DNA of 62,414 bases, the filler included, from Candidatus Delongbacteria bacterium (GTDB taxonomy: Bacteria > UBA4055), in assembly GCA_016937995.1 (NCBI GenBank). It is 3 parts of 3 records of this genome, joined end to end, with 100 filler letters (N's around TTAATTAATTAA, not from the genome) between each part and the next. Parts side by side here need not be neighbours in the genome. Positions count along the whole stretch, not along the records: positions 55,105 to 62,414 come from JAFGVM010000011.1; 2 more parts are not named here. The stretch is one strand, 5' to 3'. Made by a program: the position numbers and the translations under genes. The notes under the pieces were generated by a model. It made no database searches and was not told the origin of the DNA. It saw only the letters and a program-made list of their open reading frames with translations. Numbering within the stretch: position 1 is the first letter of the stretch; the number at the start of each line of letters is the position of its first letter. Below, piece by piece: positions 155 through 61,545 of the stretch.

Positions 155-177
155 TTTCACAACATTTTCTTTACCAT

Positions 178-208
178 AAAGCCCGGCATTCTTGTCGGGT
201 TTTTTTTT
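178..208 (+). terminator. Rho-independent terminator
   Basis: AAAGCCCGGCA-TTCT-TGTCGGGTTT hairpin followed by a T run, just after the stop codon. Confidence 0.85.
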
Positions 209-209
209 C

Positions 210-238
210 TTTACTAAGATATTATTAATTTGTATTTT
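210..238 (+). promoter_or_regulatory. Putative sigma70 promoter
   Basis: TTTACT-17 nt-TATTTT; the same arrangement recurs at 4228-4256. Confidence 0.45.
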
Positions 239-276
239 ATCCCTGAAAAGAAATCTATCTAATTAATGGAGGAAGT

Positions 277-55004: not shown

Positions 55005-55103
55005 NNNNNNNNNNNNNNNNNNNNNNNNNNNNNNNNNNNNNNNNNNNNTTAATTAATTAANNNNNNNNNNNNNNNNNNNNNNNNNNNNNNNNNNNNNNNN
55101 NNN
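55005..55103. other. Artificial contig linker (N44-TTAATTAATTAA-N43)
   Basis: Identical to 27105-27203. Confidence 0.97.
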
Positions 55104-55183
55104 NGACTTTTTCTTTTTTTAATATTTTGAATCTAACTCATCACTTACCACTTACCACTTACAACTTTTAAATAATTTTCAAA

Positions 55184-56704
55184 TTATTTTAGCAACAACA
55201 TCTTCTTTGTCATTGAAGGAACTCCATCTACATTAAGTTTGTAAAAGTAAATTCCTCCGGTAAGTTCAGATGCGTTGAAACTAATACTGTGCTCACCTTT
55301 TTCCATCAGATTATTGACTAAAGAACTAACAATTTCACCGCTGGAATTATATACAATTAATTCAACATTTGAATTATTTTCTAACCTGAATTTGATCTCT
55401 GTTGTTGGATTAAAAGGGTTAGGGTAGTTTTGATATAATAAATTACCATTTATCATTACCGGGTTATCATTTATCCCTGTTGTAGTCCATAATCTGACAT
55501 CGTCGACATACCAGATATCACCCGCAATTCCCTGATAATTGAACCCGATATATATCTCCTGTCCGTCATATTCACTTAAGTCAACATAAGTCTGCTGCCA
55601 ATTTGATGTATGAGGAAGATTATACTCTACCATATTGTAACGGCCCAGGTCTTTTGTTGTTCCAACACTATGAATTCCGGTAGCTGAAGAGTATTTTGTT
55701 TTTTCCCAGAATGATAGAACAGCATTTCCTGTTATCATCATTTTTGGAGAATACATCCAGTCATCCTGAGCGTCAAAATCATCATAAGAATGAGCTGCGG
55801 AAAATACTCCTGTGTTGGGATCTGATAACTGAATCCATCCAAGTCCTGTTGTTTGAAGTATCCATCCTGTCGGTTCAAAACTACCTTCAAAACTTTCGTA
55901 AAGATTCTGAAATAAAGCCGGATCCAGTGTTCCTACCTGCAGATTAACAAAACTTTCCTTCCCTGTGACTGTTGCACGAATAGTCAGGTCTACTGTTGTC
56001 ATTTTCTGATGACTGTCCAGAATAAGATCGCTCCCGTTCACACTTGCAGTGACAGCTTCATTGTCAGAATTTGAATAGACCTCGTAAGTTATATCTAAAC
56101 CTGTCCCGTTATAAAAAACTGATGAAAGGTCTATAGTCTGTTGCTCATCAAAATACATATCTGCAATGTCTGGTACGTTCGTAGGGTATAATTCGAAATT
56201 TGCTAATGCCGCATCAATATGTACTGTTAATTGTGACTCAGTAGAAAATGTATTTCCAACCATATATGCCTGATATCCGGGTCCTACAACAATGTTATAT
56301 GGAACATAACCATTCCCAAACCCGCTGTATAATGATCCTAATTCACTCGCTATTGAAACATAGTACGTTAAATTTGGAGTAAAAACTGTTCTCCAGCCAG
56401 TTGTGTTCATACTGTCCCAGTTATTGTTATTTGTACTCCCGAATGCTATATGCAAACTCGAATGATCGTAATCATTCCAGATATTTTCAAACAACGGAGC
56501 CTCCGTTGAACAACCGGGTCAACCTAAGTAGCCCCAGGTTAATACTACAACTTTCCCAGCATCAACCATATCATATAGATTTCTGGTTACAGGTGCTCCT
56601 CCGTCTGAATCCTGCCAGGTTACATTGTCAACAATATCCCATTGATTATACTCAGCGAATACTGACAAAGATATTATCAGAATCAGTAAAAATATTTTTT
56701 TCAT
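55184..56704 (-). CDS. Candidate selenoprotein (506 aa, Sec62): secreted thioredoxin-fold UxxC domain + Ig-like + cleaved-adhesin-like domain + T9SS-type CTD
   Basis: ORFs 56519-56704 and 55184-56494 join in frame: VVVLTWGYLG-TGA-PGCSTEAPLFENIW. Hairpin 10 nt after the TGA; cis-Pro-like GYVPYNIVV. Confidence 0.85.
56492..56508 (-). promoter_or_regulatory. Candidate bacterial SECIS hairpin
   Basis: CAACGG-AGGCU-CCGUUG stem-loop starting 11 nt after the UGA. Confidence 0.65.
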
Positions 56705-56723
56705 TTGTCACTCCCTTTGTTAC

Positions 56724-58337
56724 CTAAAATTCTGATATCAATGTCATCCTGAAACCGTCAAATTCAGGAACCTGTCTGCATGCACCTCCGGAACATTTAA
56801 TTCCGGCTCTCTCTCTACCGTAAAACAGTTCAAGCTTATGATTATCATATATATTAATACCGGCTTCAAATCCCAGCCATGAATCAGGAGCATCTTCAGC
56901 TACTTCTTCAGAAGTAGTTATCAATGAAATATTTAAATAACCATATTCAGGATATGAATATTCGACAGCAAAATACATGTCATCATAATCCTCATCCATA
57001 AGTTCATTTGTAACGGTCTGATATTCACCTGCGAACATCAATCCTGAGTTTTCGTTCAACTCATAATGAAATTCGCCCAGGAATGTAATCCTTTCATCAG
57101 AGTATACACCGGTCGAATCTGTATCTGTTTCTCCGGGAATAATGAACTGATTCGCATCTTTAGACAGTGGAGCATCTTTCAGATAACCACCGCCTATCTT
57201 AATGTTATATTCACCTGTCCCGTATTTTGCGTCAGCCCAAATATCCATGTAAGGCAGATAATCATCTGAGAATTCAGGCATAACAGCGTCTTTATTGTGC
57301 TTCGATGCAACTGCAAAAATAGTTGAAATATCAAGATTATCTACAGGATTTGTAAGAATTGAAAGTTTATATCCTATCTCATCGTTCGGATTTATCTCAT
57401 GAGGATGAGAGTTCAATAAATGTGATGTATGCTCTATCGTAAGTTCAGGCCCACCTTGATAAGGTGTAAATCCGGAAACAGTAGCATTAGGGTTAGCAGC
57501 ATACTGATAGTAATCTTTGAATTCTAAAGTTATCCCGAATCCCTCTCTTGAATAAGCTAATGAAGTATAATTTGCCCAGCCTTGTTTCGATGGGCTTCTC
57601 TGAGTGGTCTTAAGAGCGTATTCATTGTACAGATCAAAGTTCAACGCACTTGCACTAAAACTTATTCCTCCAATTTCTGTCTCTTCGATAAAGCTGGCTT
57701 CATAAAGGAATTGCAGCTCCGGAACATAATCTCCCTTCATATAAAGATAAGACCCACCCAAGTTCAAAACATAATTTTCGAGCTTAAATATTTCGCTTAG
57801 ATTCAAGATCGTTTCACTACCCAAAAGCATTGTATTCATCTGATCAACACTCTTGTTTGAAGTGTCAAAATCGTTTATATACTTGAAGTAACTTTTTCCA
57901 CCTAATGCCTGAAATGTAAGAAAGTCACCTTCGTACATTAACTTTCCTCCGGTAACTTTACTGTCAAAAAAATCAGCTCTTTCCTCCTTCAGATCAAGAA
58001 CAACTCCTCTACCGAATGTACCGTAAAAATCACCGGCTGTGATCGTTATGTCATTGTTGAAGTACTTGAAAAACTTCTTTGTAAAACCATTTAAAGCTTC
58101 ATTAAACTCACTGGAATCAGCAGCTTCATATCTGAACCCCAGGGAAAAATCACCTTTTGAAGCATCAACTGATATACAATCCTGAACGTATTGTTTTTTT
58201 ATCTCAATATCTTTATCGTCTCCAACCCATTCACTCCCGGTTCCAAATTTTATGGTATTAGTTGCTGATATTTCAAATTCCTCAGCTATGACCATACTAA
58301 AAGCAACAAATATTAACATAAGAATTAATTTTTTCAC
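56724..58337 (-). CDS. Outer membrane beta-barrel, DUF6029-like, with a C-terminal CSGGAC motif
   Basis: Signal peptide, TAGDFYGTFGRGVVL, C-terminal YGRERAGIKCSGGACRQVPEFDGF..F. Confidence 0.75.
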   Translation of the reverse strand: MKKLILMLIFVAFSMVIAEEFEISATNTIKFGTGSEWVGDDKDIEIKKQYVQDCISVDASKGDFSLGFRYEAADSSEFNEALNGFTKKFFKYFNNDITITAGDFYGTFGRGVVLDLKEERADFFDSKVTGGKLMYEGDFLTFQALGGKSYFKYINDFDTSNKSVDQMNTMLLGSETILNLSEIFKLENYVLNLGGSYLYMKGDYVPELQFLYEASFIEETEIGGISFSASALNFDLYNEYALKTTQRSPSKQGWANYTSLAYSREGFGITLEFKDYYQYAANPNATVSGFTPYQGGPELTIEHTSHLLNSHPHEINPNDEIGYKLSILTNPVDNLDISTIFAVASKHNKDAVMPEFSDDYLPYMDIWADAKYGTGEYNIKIGGGYLKDAPLSKDANQFIIPGETDTDSTGVYSDERITFLGEFHYELNENSGLMFAGEYQTVTNELMDEDYDDMYFAVEYSYPEYGYLNISLITTSEEVAEDAPDSWLGFEAGINIYDNHKLELFYGRERAGIKCSGGACRQVPEFDGFRMTLISEF

Positions 58338-58355
58338 TTTTTCCCTCTTATCTAA

Positions 58356-59315
58356 TTATTTTGAATATGCCTGATTGTACATTTTCTGCTGCCATTCTTC
58401 AAAATCACCGTCATTTAATAAATCATATTTGATTATTATACCTGTTGGCATAATAGCTATAACGTCATTATTGGTCACTGCTACAAGACCGTCTGTCTGC
58501 TCTTCTACAAAAGTCTCTACATAATCTTCTGTACCGTCCCAGAAACAATCATATGGAAGACTATTCTCTGTTCTAAAAGCATCGAATTGTCTTCTATCAA
58601 TAAATGTATGATTTCCGAAAAGTGAGTGAGAGAATGGTTCATTATAATTCGGATTTTCATACATATTTTTAAAGGCAACTGCCTCTTCCAGACAAGAAGC
58701 TCAACCGTCAGCAAGAAACTGTATAAATGTAAGCTGCTCAACCTTTCCTGTAAAATCGATAGAGTCTCTTCCGGTATTTTCCAGCAGACCGAATTTTTCA
58801 AAAATCTTCTCTTGGAGGTATTTTTTTTCAAAGTTGTAACCTAATTTTTCAGAATTACTAATGTTTTCTGATTCATCAGCAATTGAAAAATACAAATAAA
58901 ATTTCTGAGGATTAATTTCCTGAACAGCAGGTAGATCTGCCACATTTAGTATAAACAGATAATCTCCTTTTTCATCTGCTGATTTTGATTCTAGCTCATA
59001 GGATATTTTACTAAGCCAATCTTCCGCAAAAAGTGATACTTTATGTAGTGTTCCATTATCAATAGCCGATATAACCATACCATAGTCAGTTGTAAATTTT
59101 AAACTATCCTGAAAATGTACAAATGTTGTATCTAGATTCAATTCAAAATACTGAGAATCGTATATTGTGTCTAAAGTCGAACAGTTGTAAATTACAACTC
59201 TTTGCACTTCGGGTGATTCAAAATCCACATTAACAGGTGTTTCTGTGTGACATGAGTAGAAAATAAAGGCTAAAAATACCAGCATACCCATGAAAAATAA
59301 GTTTAGATTCTTCAT
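58356..59315 (-). CDS. Candidate selenoprotein (319 aa, Sec205): lipoprotein with a C-terminal thioredoxin-fold UxxC domain
   Basis: Lipobox FYSC. ORFs 58701-59315 and 58356-58664 join in frame: FTGKVEQLTFIQFLADG-TGA-ASCLEEAVAFKNMY. Confidence 0.82.
58671..58686 (-). promoter_or_regulatory. Candidate bacterial SECIS hairpin
   Basis: AGAGGC-AGUU-GCCUUU stem-loop starting 15 nt after the UGA. Confidence 0.5.
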
Positions 59316-59848
59316 TTGCTCTTTTCCTCACTTTTTTCATCATTTATTTCAACTTTTACTTCGGAATCAAAAGCTGATAATATTGCTTCCTCGAACATTT
59401 TTTCTGTTCCTTTCCCATCCTGCTTGAAAACGATTTCTCCTTTCGTGTTCAAAATAAAGGTCACAGGTACTTTAGAAGAACATCCGAAGCTTTTAAATAC
59501 TTTTTTATCACTGTCAAAAAGGACCTGAAAATCAAATCCTTTAGACTTTACAAAACTCTTAGCCTTTTGGATAGCACTTCCTTTATCTATCGTGATAAGG
59601 AGCATACTGAGACCTTTATCCTTGTATTTATTATAAAGGTCATTGAACAACGGCATTTCCTCTTTACATGGAACACACCATGATGCCCAAAAATCAATTA
59701 AGACCGGCCCTTTTGCTAAAACTTCTTCAAGTTTCACTGATTTCCCGTTAATATCTTTCAACTTGAAATCAGGTGCTTTTTTCAGTTCCTCTGAAAATAG
59801 TATAACACTAAAAAAAAGTAGTGCTAACATCACTTTTTTCAATACCAT
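59312..59848 (-). CDS. TlpA/ResA-like thiol-disulfide oxidoreductase
   Basis: Signal peptide, APDFKL.D..G, IDFWASWCVPCKEEMP, VPVTFIL. Confidence 0.93.
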   Translation of the reverse strand: MVLKKVMLALLFFSVILFSEELKKAPDFKLKDINGKSVKLEEVLAKGPVLIDFWASWCVPCKEEMPLFNDLYNKYKDKGLSMLLITIDKGSAIQKAKSFVKSKGFDFQVLFDSDKKVFKSFGCSSKVPVTFILNTKGEIVFKQDGKGTEKMFEEAILSAFDSEVKVEINDEKSEEKSK

Positions 59849-60043
59849 CTTTGATCCTCACATTTAATTTGTGTATGTTCAATTCCTGCAACATAGATAT
59901 TTATCTATATTCTTCCTAGTCCTATAGTATCAAATAAAAAATAAAAAAACAAGGTTAAAGTTAACAAATAATACAGATTTAACTGCGTTACTGCAAGTTC
60001 CTCACAATCAAAATATCCATTGATTGTTTCCAAATAAAACAAA

Positions 60044-60072
60044 TTGACAAATCTGGCTTTGAGGATTATATT
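60044..60072 (+). promoter_or_regulatory. sigma70 promoter
   Basis: TTGACA-17 nt-TATATT upstream of the aminopeptidase. Confidence 0.65.
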
Positions 60073-60120
60073 CTAGGTCTGTTAATTGTCGTATAAAAAT
60101 TTATATAAAGGAGATTAGCA

Positions 60121-61545
60121 ATGGCAAAGGAAAAAAAATCAGATCTCGAAAAATTGGGTGAAAAGCTTCTTTTTACCAAAAAGAACGGGTGGGATGGTCT
60201 TGAAAAAAAGAACTTCGATACTGTAATGGCCCTTTCTGAGGATTACAAAAATTTCCTTAATTCGAGTAAAACTGAAAGAGAGTCCATTGATACTATCGCT
60301 AAACTTGCCAAAAAGTTTGGTTTTGTTGATATCAAAAAAGCTAAGAGAACAGATAAAAAGCTTTTTATCAATTATGATGGTGTTGCCGGTTCATTGGTCT
60401 ATGTAAAAGACCCAAAGAAATTTCATGAGGGTTTCCTTATGAATGGAGCTCATATAGACGTTCCGAGAATCGATCTTAAACAGAACCCGCTTTATGAAGA
60501 TGAAGATATGGCTTACATGAAAACTCACTATTATGGTGGAATAAAAAAATACCAGTGGGTAACCAGACCTTTAGCTCTTCATGGAGTTATTATTCTTGAA
60601 AATGGTAAAACTGTAAAAGTAAATATCGGTGAAAAAGATACAGATCCGGTATTTACAATCAATGATCTGCTTCCTCATCTTGCTCAGGACCAGTACAAAA
60701 AAACTCCTGCGACTGTTGTTGAAGGTGAACAGCTGAATATTCTTGTAGGATCTATACCCTACAAATTCAAGCATGAAAAAAATGCCGTAAAATTAGCTAT
60801 ACTCGATCATTTGAATAAAGAGTATGGTATAGTTGAAGAGGATTTTGTAAGTGCTGAATTACAATTAGTTCCTGCCGGAAATGCCAGGGATATAGGATTT
60901 GACAGAAGCTTTGTCGGATCTCACGGTCATGATGACAGGATCTGTGCATATCTTGGAATGAAAGCTATCTTAGACATTAAAGAGAAGGATATTAAGAAGA
61001 ATTTAATGATGATCTTCTTTGATAAGGAAGAGATCGGTTCTGCCGGAAATGCCGGTGCGGATTCTAATATTGTTGAAAGAATGGTCAATGATGTTCTACA
61101 GCTGAACGGAAACAAAGATTACAATGTCCTGATAAAAGCACTTGAGAACTCCAAACTACTTTCATCTGATGTAAATGCCGGAATTGATCCTGCCTGGAAG
61201 AGTGTGAATGAACCAATGAACGCTGCTAAGATCGGTTACGGAGTTTGTTTGACTAAATTCACTGGATCAGGAGGTAAAGGTGGTTCTAATGAAGCTCATG
61301 CTGAATTTGTAGCTGATGTAAGAAAAGCTTTCAACAAAGACGGCGTTCTATGGCAAACTACAGAACTTGGAAAAGTGGATCAAGGTGGTGGTGGTACTAT
61401 CGCAAAATATTTGGCTTCTTACGGAATGGATGTGGTTGACTGCGGAACAGCATTGCTTTCTATGCACGCTCCATTCGAAATTGCTTCAAAAATAGATATT
61501 TATCACACTTACAAAGCGTATCTTGCTTTCTACAAATACTTGTAG
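60121..61545 (+). CDS. M18 family aminopeptidase
   Basis: KTERE, AHIDVPR, HYYGGIKKYQW, DDR, DKEEIGS, GGGGTIA, LSMHAP. Confidence 0.93.
   Translation: MAKEKKSDLEKLGEKLLFTKKNGWDGLEKKNFDTVMALSEDYKNFLNSSKTERESIDTIAKLAKKFGFVDIKKAKRTDKKLFINYDGVAGSLVYVKDPKKFHEGFLMNGAHIDVPRIDLKQNPLYEDEDMAYMKTHYYGGIKKYQWVTRPLALHGVIILENGKTVKVNIGEKDTDPVFTINDLLPHLAQDQYKKTPATVVEGEQLNILVGSIPYKFKHEKNAVKLAILDHLNKEYGIVEEDFVSAELQLVPAGNARDIGFDRSFVGSHGHDDRICAYLGMKAILDIKEKDIKKNLMMIFFDKEEIGSAGNAGADSNIVERMVNDVLQLNGNKDYNVLIKALENSKLLSSDVNAGIDPAWKSVNEPMNAAKIGYGVCLTKFTGSGGKGGSNEAHAEFVADVRKAFNKDGVLWQTTELGKVDQGGGGTIAKYLASYGMDVVDCGTALLSMHAPFEIASKIDIYHTYKAYLAFYKYL

Follow-up and report, generated by a model that had tools for sequence, protein, structure and literature searches.

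We suggest that the minus-strand stretch 55184-56704 encodes a selenoprotein that is decoded by SelB and tRNA-Sec, consists of a TlpA/ResA-like thioredoxin domain, two beta-sandwiches and a type IX secretion system (T9SS) C-terminal sorting domain (CTD), and acts at the cell surface. The probability of this reading is about 0.82. The stretch is one gene encoding one selenoprotein and not two genes. It lies at 83-1600 of contig C46 of the source genome (G000), and the window, i.e. the whole 62,414 nucleotides of DNA that were analysed, is made of joined contigs, positions 55005-55104 being an N spacer.

The 61-aa ORF 56519-56704 closes at the TGA (motif GYLG-U-PG-C), and the frame beyond it is free of stops until the TAA at 55184-55186. 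The 506-residue product reads MKK...GKVVVLTWGYLG-U-PGCSTEAPLFENIWNDY...NYPNPFNP...KKMLLLK. The preliminary description had joined the short ORF and the frame after the TGA into a single protein, which is borne out by the one open frame with its single TGA. A Shine-Dalgarno-like AAGGGAG stands 8 nt 5' of the ATG at 56704. The putative signal peptide, judged by eye, follows the typical n-h-c pattern with VFA before the cleavage point and EY after it, and is conserved in the paralogues; the N-terminal helix has low pLDDT in the AF2 models. The 'downstream ORF' given by translation table 11 (55184-56494, 436 aa, TTG start) is without a signal peptide. Among the sequencing runs listed with the gene there is no RNA run, and the contigs from four sequencing runs cover mostly the conserved NYPNPFNP stretch, with no piece spanning the gene.

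Table 1. Coordinates of the selenoprotein gene, its parts and its neighbours in the window
Feature	Position	Strand	Remarks
Sec-containing T9SS cargo CDS	55184-56704	-	506 codons and TAA stop; single in-frame TGA
Putative Sec-type signal peptide	56654-56704	-	residues 1-17, MKKIFLLILIISLSVFA followed by EY; read by eye from the sequence
Selenocysteine U62 codon (TGA)	56519-56521	-	first residue of the U-P-G-C redox motif
SECIS-like hairpin CAACGGA-GGC-UCCGUUG	56492-56508	-	core helix 56495-56505; begins 10 nt 3' of the UGA
TlpA/ResA-like thioredoxin-fold domain	56195-56653	-	residues 18-170; U62, C65, cis-Pro P135
First beta-sandwich (Ig-like) domain	55919-56191	-	residues ~172-262; all-beta in the AF2 full-length model
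Choice-of-anchor J / MAM-like jelly-roll domain	55493-55903	-	residues 268-404; NF038128
T9SS type A C-terminal sorting domain	55202-55426	-	residues 427-501; PF18962, TIGR04183
DUF6029 gene, probable Wzi-like outer-membrane beta-barrel	56724-58337	-	PF19494, E 7.6e-47
Cassette-partner lipoprotein P0009, 319 aa	58356-59315	-	second in-frame TGA 58701-58703, U205, G-U-A-S-C
Periplasmic ResA/TlpA-like CxxC (WCVPC) oxidoreductase	59312-59848	-	first gene of the local operon; AhpC-TSA, Redoxin and ResA subfamily matches

The reading of the TGA as selenocysteine is well supported by sequence comparison. Of 27 distinct family genes, drawn from 11 genomes, 26 have the TGA in the identical alignment column, with both flanks conserved; the remaining one (G007:C80, motif WCVPC) has TGT, i.e. 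Cys, at this place. Such sharing is far beyond chance. In the comparison of the family profile with the PDB, U62 is aligned with the first Cys of the CxxC of thioredoxin and ResA. The genome also holds the decoding machinery, with selA (549 bits), selB (334 bits), selD (354 bits, carrying a TGA of its own) and tRNA-Sec (58.4 bits; called SeC(tca) by ARAGORN), all four over their curated cut-offs. The preliminary description would have been refuted by a TGA confined to this assembly in a genome lacking selABC; the TGA recurs across 11 related genomes, and selA, selB, selD and tRNA-Sec are all present. Together with the Cys homologue and the SECIS-like hairpin, this upholds its assignment of the TGA.

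The TGA might also be read as Trp, Gly or Cys through an alternative code or near-cognate suppression. A relative with 46% identity, P0006, is indeed recorded with W at the Sec column (GQGWGGC), but this may be a gene-caller reading of TGA under table 4; a related-locus search did not recover the P0006 DNA, its sole results being a remote CTD match and a WCGPC protein of no relation. Against such readthrough, TGA terminates 102 of the 1187 open frames of at least 300 codons in the genome, and three family genes themselves end in it. Moreover, there is one TGA per gene, always at the redox position, and the Sec machinery is complete. Hence, we consider readthrough with an ordinary amino acid highly improbable.

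Bacterial SECIS elements consist of a stem-loop soon after the UGA with a G in the apical loop. The hairpin behind U62 occupies alignment columns 14-30, with the loop G-G-C, in which G22 is invariant. Across the family 68.1% of cells pair, a value that none of 500 shuffles attains (they give 55.2%), the covariation score is 0.328 versus 0.160 with every slid control lower, and all 7 of 7 pairs vary on both sides. Columns 16-28 have 75% GC in a genome of 34.6% GC. Its codons are mostly rare among their synonyms: ACG, which makes up 7.6% of the Thr codons of the genome, stands for Thr in 11/26 sequences, Ala is GCG in 11/26 and 12/26 at two codons (8.5%), Glu is GAG in 10 of 10 (27.5%) and Pro is CCG in 16 of 22 (22%), while the Cys homologue G007:C80 uses common codons and has no hairpin. 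We note that the hairpin overlaps the conserved T/A-E/A-A-P codons, thus part of its conservation reflects the protein. As a single sequence its stability is unremarkable (z = -0.83; 43 of 200 shuffles fold equally well), the RNAalifold consensus retains just the 4-bp core, and in 5 of the 26 sequences the hairpin is displaced or of another kind. The Rfam scan of 55060-60200 at E <= 10 gave no SECIS family and three chance snoRNA/sRNA matches.

The same region bears on the possibility that the TGA is a true stop, so that a gene for a 61-aa secreted peptide is followed by a second gene of 436 aa, whose translation would start anew at the TTG at 56494, with the GGAGG in the hairpin loop as ribosome-binding site. 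The GGAGG does sit 5 nt before this TTG, and public annotation of the relatives agrees: the entries P0002, P0004 and P0008 begin just past the TGA, and P0078 is a 62-aa N-terminal fragment. However, no more than 2 of the 26 sequences have TTG at columns 28-30, where the most frequent codon, TTA (7), is not a start codon, and the paralogues carry GGCGGCG where GGAGG stands. The downstream product would have a T9SS CTD but lack a signal peptide, strand 1 and helix 1 of the thioredoxin fold would fall to different products, and the TGA column aligns with the catalytic Cys. We therefore give a true stop very little credence.

That the N-terminal domain of the selenoprotein has a TlpA/ResA-like thioredoxin fold, with UxxC followed by xxExP, is strongly supported by modelling. 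In the AF2 model of this domain (pLDDT 89.1, pTM 0.84) a strand at 52-58 is followed by a helix at 63-78, and U62 caps the N-terminus of this helix 1. Foldseek with the model gives ResA structures at TMt 0.79-0.84 (1su9_B at TMt 0.84, rmsd 2.3 A), and the family profile finds in the PDB thioredoxin 4fyu (E 4.8e-10) and ResA 4nmu (E 1e-9), with P135 falling on the cis-Pro. The residues C62(U), C65 and P135 are invariant in 25 aligned sequences. In Pfam the single sequence stays under threshold for both AhpC-TSA (15.7 bits, cut-off 26) and Redoxin (13.5 bits, cut-off 26.6); the paralogues reach 24.3 and 18.5 bits, respectively. A thioredoxin/redoxin fold with U at the start of the helix had been predicted from the sequence; model, Foldseek and profile agree on it, and the fold spans the TGA junction, where its absence would have told against the preliminary description.

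The weak Pfam matches to AhpC/TSA and Redoxin, as well as peroxiredoxins among the Foldseek matches, would suit a real selenoprotein that does not act as a disulfide reductase or isomerase but serves as a peroxidase or antioxidant shield for the surface of an anaerobe. Sec peroxidases are also common among selenoproteins (PMC13188914, Table 1). However, the structural matches with the highest TM-scores are ResA/TlpA-like proteins, and UxxC followed by xxExP is the ResA arrangement, not the T-x-x-C/U of peroxiredoxins. Peroxiredoxins have T or S three residues before the peroxidatic Cys or Sec, and in T56-W-G-Y59-L-G-U62 the corresponding residue is Tyr. The peroxidase role is thus unlikely.

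Behind the thioredoxin domain the preliminary description had placed an Ig-like and a cleaved-adhesin-like domain. The first of these stands: the all-beta region at residues ~172-262 has MAM-Ig and multi-Ig proteins as Foldseek matches, and no Pfam family was found for it. The jelly-roll is matched by NF038128 (E 3e-12, 47 bits, cut-off 30) and resembles the MAM-Ig protein 2c9a, CBM61 and the gingipain K3 cleaved adhesin 3m1h (TMt 0.65). Its likeness to a cleaved adhesin is just one among several equally good beta-sandwich resemblances. The T9SS CTD, also proposed before, exceeds the curated cut-offs of both PF18962 (39.2 bits, cut-off 27) and TIGR04183 (32.1 bits, cut-off 23). The genome encodes PorU (557 bits, cut-off 420) and SprA (650 bits, three matches in one frame summed); the PorV-like match in it, at 220 bits, lies under the cut-off of 250. 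From the CTD together with PorU and SprA we infer that the selenoprotein is located at the surface. This location was earlier called poorly described for bacterial selenoproteins. It is unusual but not unprecedented, since a 2026 inventory already lists extracytoplasmic and outer-membrane bacterial selenoproteins (PMC13188914).

That SelB and tRNA-Sec decode the UGA 56519-56521 as Sec, directed by the hairpin 10 nt downstream, is well supported, as is the place of this Sec at the beginning of helix 1, opposite the cis-Pro P135, in lieu of the nucleophilic N-terminal Cys. For the further course of events we propose the following. The preprotein with its putative Sec signal peptide would pass the inner membrane via Sec, the SprA translocon of the T9SS would take it over the outer membrane and PorU would process it, so that the selenoprotein ends on the cell surface or is released from it. 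There the selenolate may attack disulfides or another oxidised chalcogen or thiol substrate, held near by the C-terminal binding modules. A selenenylsulfide with C65 would result, which would have to be reduced again. We know of no source of reducing power at the bacterial cell surface, thus catalytic turnover there is unexplained.

With no obvious reductant at the surface, the UxxC could be mainly a high-affinity site for binding or capture of soft metals, polysulfide or elemental sulfur, or selenium species, and not a turnover catalyst. An adhesin-like scaffold would be a fitting place for such a site, and the numerous paralogues with differing C-terminal modules would agree with it, as would the one paralogue that has changed to CxxU. 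In the preprint 10.1101/2022.07.06.499078, extracellular-facing CU/UxxC selenoproteins of the SAO system are proposed to bind metals. However, the full catalytic set of thioredoxin (cis-Pro, xxExP) is conserved and there is no match to a metal-binding family. Three redox-dead paralogues suggest, moreover, that the scaffold may be useful by itself. We regard a mere capture site as improbable, and favour the surface-acting thioredoxin-like selenoprotein.

The neighbourhood of the gene offers a possible route for electrons. The selenoprotein gene is the last in a conserved three-gene cassette, in the order U/CxxC thioredoxin-like lipoprotein, DUF6029 barrel and Sec-thioredoxin gene. The stop of the DUF6029 gene lies 19 nt upstream of the selenoprotein ATG, and its place between the other two is conserved in the genomes G009 and G003. 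The available text of PMC9603273 links DUF6029 to the Wzi barrel. The lipoprotein has no Pfam family and one chance match in NCBIfam. It probably has a thioredoxin-like C-terminal domain: its family profile gives weak thioredoxin-like matches in the PDB (E 0.15-0.5), and the Atlas search with a Cys orthologue of it points, as a lead only, to AhpC/TSA/TlpA clusters at 0.85. The TlpA-like gene 59312-59848 (AhpC-TSA 5.2e-26, Redoxin 3.6e-24, ResA subfamily 6.8e-32) carries Cys and matches NF041054 weakly. It was rejected as a member of the cassette, because the genes upstream at the G009 locus encode DUF4835 and MeaB.

It is conceivable, though doubtful, that the cassette forms an outer-membrane redox relay by which selenol catalysis would take place outside the cell. 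The relay would consist of the Sec/Cys thioredoxin-like lipoprotein, the Wzi-like DUF6029 barrel and the T9SS-displayed Sec-thioredoxin, and electrons would run from DsbD via a periplasmic TlpA and the lipoprotein to the surface enzyme. Paralogues with different binding modules would then be aimed at different extracellular substrates, candidates being disulfide-rich proteins before proteolysis, polysulfide or elemental sulfur, selenium species and metals. If true, this would be an unprecedented means of powering redox enzymes on the bacterial surface.

The domain shares with the TlpA/ResA/DsbE-type oxidoreductases (cd02966; B. subtilis ResA 1su9, B. anthracis 4nmu) the thioredoxin fold, the central insert, the cis-Pro loop and a redox motif that caps helix 1 at its N-terminus and precedes xxExP, besides a putative signal peptide and a predicted extracytoplasmic location. 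However, it has Sec for the first Cys, identity is ~15-17% with Pfam scores sub-threshold, and those are periplasmic or membrane-anchored single-domain proteins, whereas here the domain is fused to two beta-sandwiches and a T9SS CTD. Known Sec-TlpA/redoxin selenoproteins likewise carry Sec for Cys at the first position of CxxC and have Cys homologues elsewhere; their motif is UGC, unlike U-P-G-C here. The text of the inventory PMC13188914 contains neither 'T9SS' nor 'sorting domain'. Among the five NCBIfam matches at E <= 1 there is no selenoprotein model, the ResA-like NF041054 (WAxxUGC) included. By description, P. gingivalis HBP35 offers a precedent. According to the available text of PMC2907840, this surface T9SS cargo likewise joins a thioredoxin-like CxxC domain to a T9SS CTD with surface attachment, and its in vitro thioredoxin activity is abolished by mutation of the two Cys. 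As described there, HBP35 is a Cys protein of Bacteroidota that binds hemin, whereas the present protein has Sec, additional beta-sandwich domains and many paralogues. Hence, we consider the selenoprotein to be a T9SS cargo that varies on the UxxC TlpA-like selenoproteins already known, and whose surface location and substrate we infer. Sec decoding and type IX secretion are thus joined, a connection that the searched literature does not make, and the question is raised of how a Sec/Cys redox centre is kept reduced outside the outer membrane.

The family is strongly expanded: the phylum-wide search gave 55 matches in 13 of 16 genomes, 50 of the 55 with exactly one TGA. There are six such paralogues in the source genome and up to nine per genome. 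A little-known candidate phylum, for which NCBI gives the name Candidatus Delongbacteria to close homologues, thus uses several of the T9SS cargo proteins in each genome for selenocysteine chemistry. The genes next to the paralogues on contigs C50 and C71 (PGK-TIM fusion, sigma factor, IspD, MscS, methyltransferase) give no functional clue. Public entries are cut short at or after the TGA and carry the name 'choice-of-anchor J domain-containing protein'; the prokaryotic selenoproteome thus gains a large family whose annotation has been systematically wrong. As an annotation rule, one may look for a signal-peptide ORF of 60-70 aa ending in ...G-TGA immediately 5' of a CTD protein without a signal peptide. 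Metagenomic Cys homologues (P0010-P0017, P0021, P0023, P0024, P0026, P0027) resemble the selenoprotein in the putative signal peptide and in the thioredoxin-like domain, which the family profile matches at E 1e-56 to 1e-26; the Ig-like domain and a NYPNPFNP...KKMLLVK CTD are often shared as well. They differ in having CxxC (WCVPC, TCGPC, WCGPC, GCTYC, WCGGC and others) instead of UxxC, and their middle domains vary.

The 61-codon ORF and the frame downstream of its TGA constitute one gene, as the preliminary description proposed. Past the TGA the frame stays open until a TAA with no other stop, and with TGA read as U it gives a 506-residue product, whose sole U, residue 62, lies in GKVVVLTWGYLG-U-PGCSTEAPLFENIW. 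The ATG at 56704 lies 19 nt past the stop of the upstream gene, with an AAGGGAG Shine-Dalgarno-like site 8 nt 5' of it. We put the probability of a true selenoprotein gene with the architecture described here at about 0.9.

Coordinates of the Sec-Trx gene, its cassette and other loci (window positions unless a contig, locus or residue range is given)
Feature	Position	Strand	Remark
ResA/TlpA-like CxxC protein	59312-59848	-	first cassette gene
Lipoprotein (P0009), 319 codons	58356-59315	-	lipobox ...YSC/HTETP
Lipoprotein in-frame TGA	58701-58703	-	U205, G-U-A-S-C
DUF6029	56724-58337	-	between lipoprotein and Sec-Trx gene
Sec-Trx gene	55184-56704 (G000:C46:83-1600)	-	final cassette gene; one frame, one TGA
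61-codon ORF	56519..56704	-	terminates in TGA
Sec-Trx TAA	55184-55186	-
First beta-sandwich	residues ~172-262		full-length model
Second beta-sandwich	residues 264-408		full-length model; NCBIfam choice-of-anchor J, 3e-12
C-terminal beta-sandwich			T9SS type A sorting domain (CTD); PF18962 39.2 bits, TIGR04183 32.1 bits
Contig C39	27205-55004
Contig spacer	55005-55104		ttaattaattaa flanked by two N runs; connects C39 and C46
Contig C46	from 55105
selD	G000:C37:2048-2968	-
Sec-Trx copy L070	G000:C3:6741-~8290	+
Fusion gene	G000:C50 (L058:11547-13520)	+

Since the window consists of joined contigs, the genes flanking the spacer are no true neighbours.

A read-through search across 41 related genomes returned many full-length relatives flagged with one TGA. 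Fetched loci and the whole genome were translated with TGA as U, and the N-terminal domains recovered by phmmer (E < 1e-5) were aligned in 28 rows, representing 27 distinct genes (one locus doubled) from 11 genomes. The identical column holds TGA in 26 of the 27, every one as U-x-x-C (UPGC, UGGC, UGAC, UGPC, USTC, UNTC, UISC, ULDC, UPSC, USGC), and Cys in the 27th (G007:C80, motif WCVPC), with both flanks of the column conserved. The TGA is thus shared by 11 genomes and not confined to one assembly without selABC; selA, selB and tRNA-Sec are present. A domain profile search over 16 genomes of the phylum set (E <= 1e-10) gave 55 matches in 13 of them, 50 with one TGA and five without; the TGA column was verified gene by gene for the 26 aligned genes. 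The TGA-free matches are one CxxC member, one periplasmic TlpA-like WCKPC protein and three proteins without CxxC. An exhaustive profile search also yielded full-length Cys homologues arranged in the same way, with signal peptide, Trx domain and a CTD. Relatives in public databases are truncated, beginning past the TGA, and carry the name 'choice-of-anchor J domain-containing protein [Candidatus Delongbacteria bacterium]'; a 62-aa N-terminal fragment has been deposited as well.

The genome encodes selA (549 bits), selB (334 bits), selD (354 bits) and a tRNA-Sec (58.4 bits; ARAGORN call SeC, anticodon tca). TGA remains a functional stop codon in this genome, terminating 102 of 1187 open frames of at least 300 codons and three genes of the family itself. 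A full-length database relative (P0006, 519 aa, 46% identical) is recorded with W at the Sec column (GQGWGGC), perhaps because a gene caller read TGA by table 4. The aligned TGA/Cys column, the Sec genes with their tRNA, the retained stop and the covarying hairpin described next all uphold the selenoprotein claim. The selD gene has one in-frame TGA of its own, and the product is therefore a Sec-type SelD.

A CAACGGA-GGC-UCCGUUG hairpin begins 10 nt after the UGA. Taken alone it is unremarkable (z = -0.83; equal folding in 43/200 shuffles). Among 26 ungapped family sequences, 68.1% of the cells of the 7-bp helix are paired versus 55.2% in shuffles, a level reached by 0/500; two-sided changes occur at all seven pairs, the loop base G22 is invariant, and the covariation score is 0.328, as against 0.160 for shuffles; slid controls score 0.067-0.185. 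RNAalifold retains only a 4-bp core, and in five of the 26 the hairpin is shifted. Codon choice gives independent support: GC reaches 75% in columns 16-28 (genome, 34.6%), with ACG in 11/26 (7.6% of Thr codons genome-wide), GCG in 11/26 and 12/26 at two codons (8.5% of Ala), GAG at 10/10 Glu codons (27.5%) and CCG at 16/22 Pro codons (22%). The Cys homologue G007:C80 likewise encodes QAEAP but by common codons, and the hairpin is absent there. An Rfam scan matched no family to the hairpin.

Two genes upstream lies a second selenoprotein candidate, the lipoprotein, which standard annotation would split into ORFs of 204 and 102 aa. Its TGA is found in all three genomes of the genus and an internal stop in none of eight matches from other genera; the U column is Cys in 5/5 aligned other-genus orthologues, which also share an invariant second Cys and VLP-type proline. 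An AGGCAGUUGCCU hairpin 3' of this TGA is present in both Sec forms examined and in 0/5 Cys forms. Weak PDB-profile matches, together with leads from the Atlas, suggest that the lipoprotein folds like a thioredoxin. By coordinates, the order lipoprotein, DUF6029, Sec-Trx recurs in G009 (C35), G012 (C14) and G003 (C42), spanning at least three genera, with DUF6029 in the middle confirmed by Pfam for G009 and G003. PMC9603273 connects DUF6029 to the Wzi outer-membrane barrel via HHpred. The TlpA-like gene was rejected as a conserved cassette member: at the G009 locus DUF4835 and MeaB stand upstream.

The expected Trx/redoxin fold across the junction, with U at the helix start, is borne out by AlphaFold2, profile and Foldseek alike. 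Single-sequence Pfam matches to AhpC-TSA and Redoxin span the TGA junction below threshold; the family profile finds thioredoxin 4fyu (4.8e-10) and ResA 4nmu (1e-9) in the PDB, aligning U with the first Cys of CxxC, xxExP with ResA CKPCEKEMP and P135 with the cis-Pro. Only C62(U), C65 and P135 are invariant in 25 sequences. The AlphaFold2 model of the Trx domain from the family alignment (pLDDT 89.1, pTM 0.84) has a strand at 52-58 and a helix at 63-78, and U62 is therefore predicted to cap helix 1. By TM-score, the structures that Foldseek places closest to it are ResA and further proteins of the TlpA type (TMt 0.79-0.84, rmsd 2.3-2.8 A). Three further domains follow in the full-length model (pLDDT 86). 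The second was described as cleaved-adhesin-like; it does resemble the gingipain K3 cleaved-adhesin domain (3m1h, TMt 0.65), but is equally related to MAM-Ig modules and CBMs, and NCBIfam assigns choice-of-anchor J. The last is the T9SS-type CTD expected, with both models above cut-off.

The genome also encodes PorU (557 bits), SprA (three matches in a single frame, 650 bits in total) and a PorV-like protein just under cut-off. Starting from the established gene structure, Sec/Cys pairing, fold, CTD and Sec and T9SS machinery, we suggest that the preprotein would undergo Sec-dependent export, then T9SS translocation and surface display. There, in thiol-disulfide (selenenylsulfide) exchange, U62 would make the nucleophilic attack and C65 would resolve it, with substrates presumably recruited by the beta-sandwich modules. 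Surface thiol-disulfide oxidoreductase activity is a somewhat favoured function. One option for re-reduction of the extracellular site is ambient reductants of anoxic habitats, another a relay through the cassette partners; a DsbD-type membrane reductase gene lies elsewhere in the genome.

We rate this protein as a new variant, because UxxC TlpA-like selenoproteins are known, no NCBIfam selenoprotein model matches it and the literature searched holds no T9SS link: here a TlpA-like oxidoreductase with Sec has become a T9SS cargo of several domains, and its family is strongly expanded in one phylum. A 2026 inventory of 119 prokaryotic families (PMC13188914), compared by its text and part of Table 1, so that overlap with a broadly defined row is possible, includes selenoproteins with a UxxC motif that are of the TlpA, redoxin or thiol-disulfide-isomerase kind; 'T9SS' and 'sorting domain' have zero occurrences in its whole text. 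Full-text literature searches gave nothing relevant for selenoproteins or selenocysteine with type IX secretion or Por_Secre_tail, or for Delongbacteria with selenocysteine. The surface location, which the preliminary description called poorly described for bacterial selenoproteins, is uncommon but has precedents: the inventory lists an MtrB/PioB-type barrel and a TonB-dependent receptor in the outer membrane, and a preprint (10.1101/2022.07.06.499078) proposes SaoB and SaoC of Firmicutes as extracellular-facing. P. gingivalis HBP35, according to PMC2907840, is a characterised T9SS cargo with thioredoxin activity; both proteins have a thioredoxin-type site, but HBP35 uses Cys and the Sec-Trx protein U.

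Six Sec-Trx copies occur in the source genome, a tandem trio on C50 and single genes on C46 (the present one), C71 and C3, and every scanned copy has the CTD. The C3 copy (L070), 1.7 kb from selA, keeps the whole architecture and CTD; its motif is C-Y-S-U-S-G, that is CxxU, with no downstream Cys. Three loci of related genomes (G007:C216, G007:C122, G004:C91; L066-L068) have neither TGA nor CxxC (e.g. WGTVNDPYME) and, judged by sequence, are redox-dead copies of the family scaffold; the database protein P0063 is of the same kind. Immediately 5' of the tandem trio on C50 lies a gene for a 657-aa fusion of phosphoglycerate kinase and triosephosphate isomerase.
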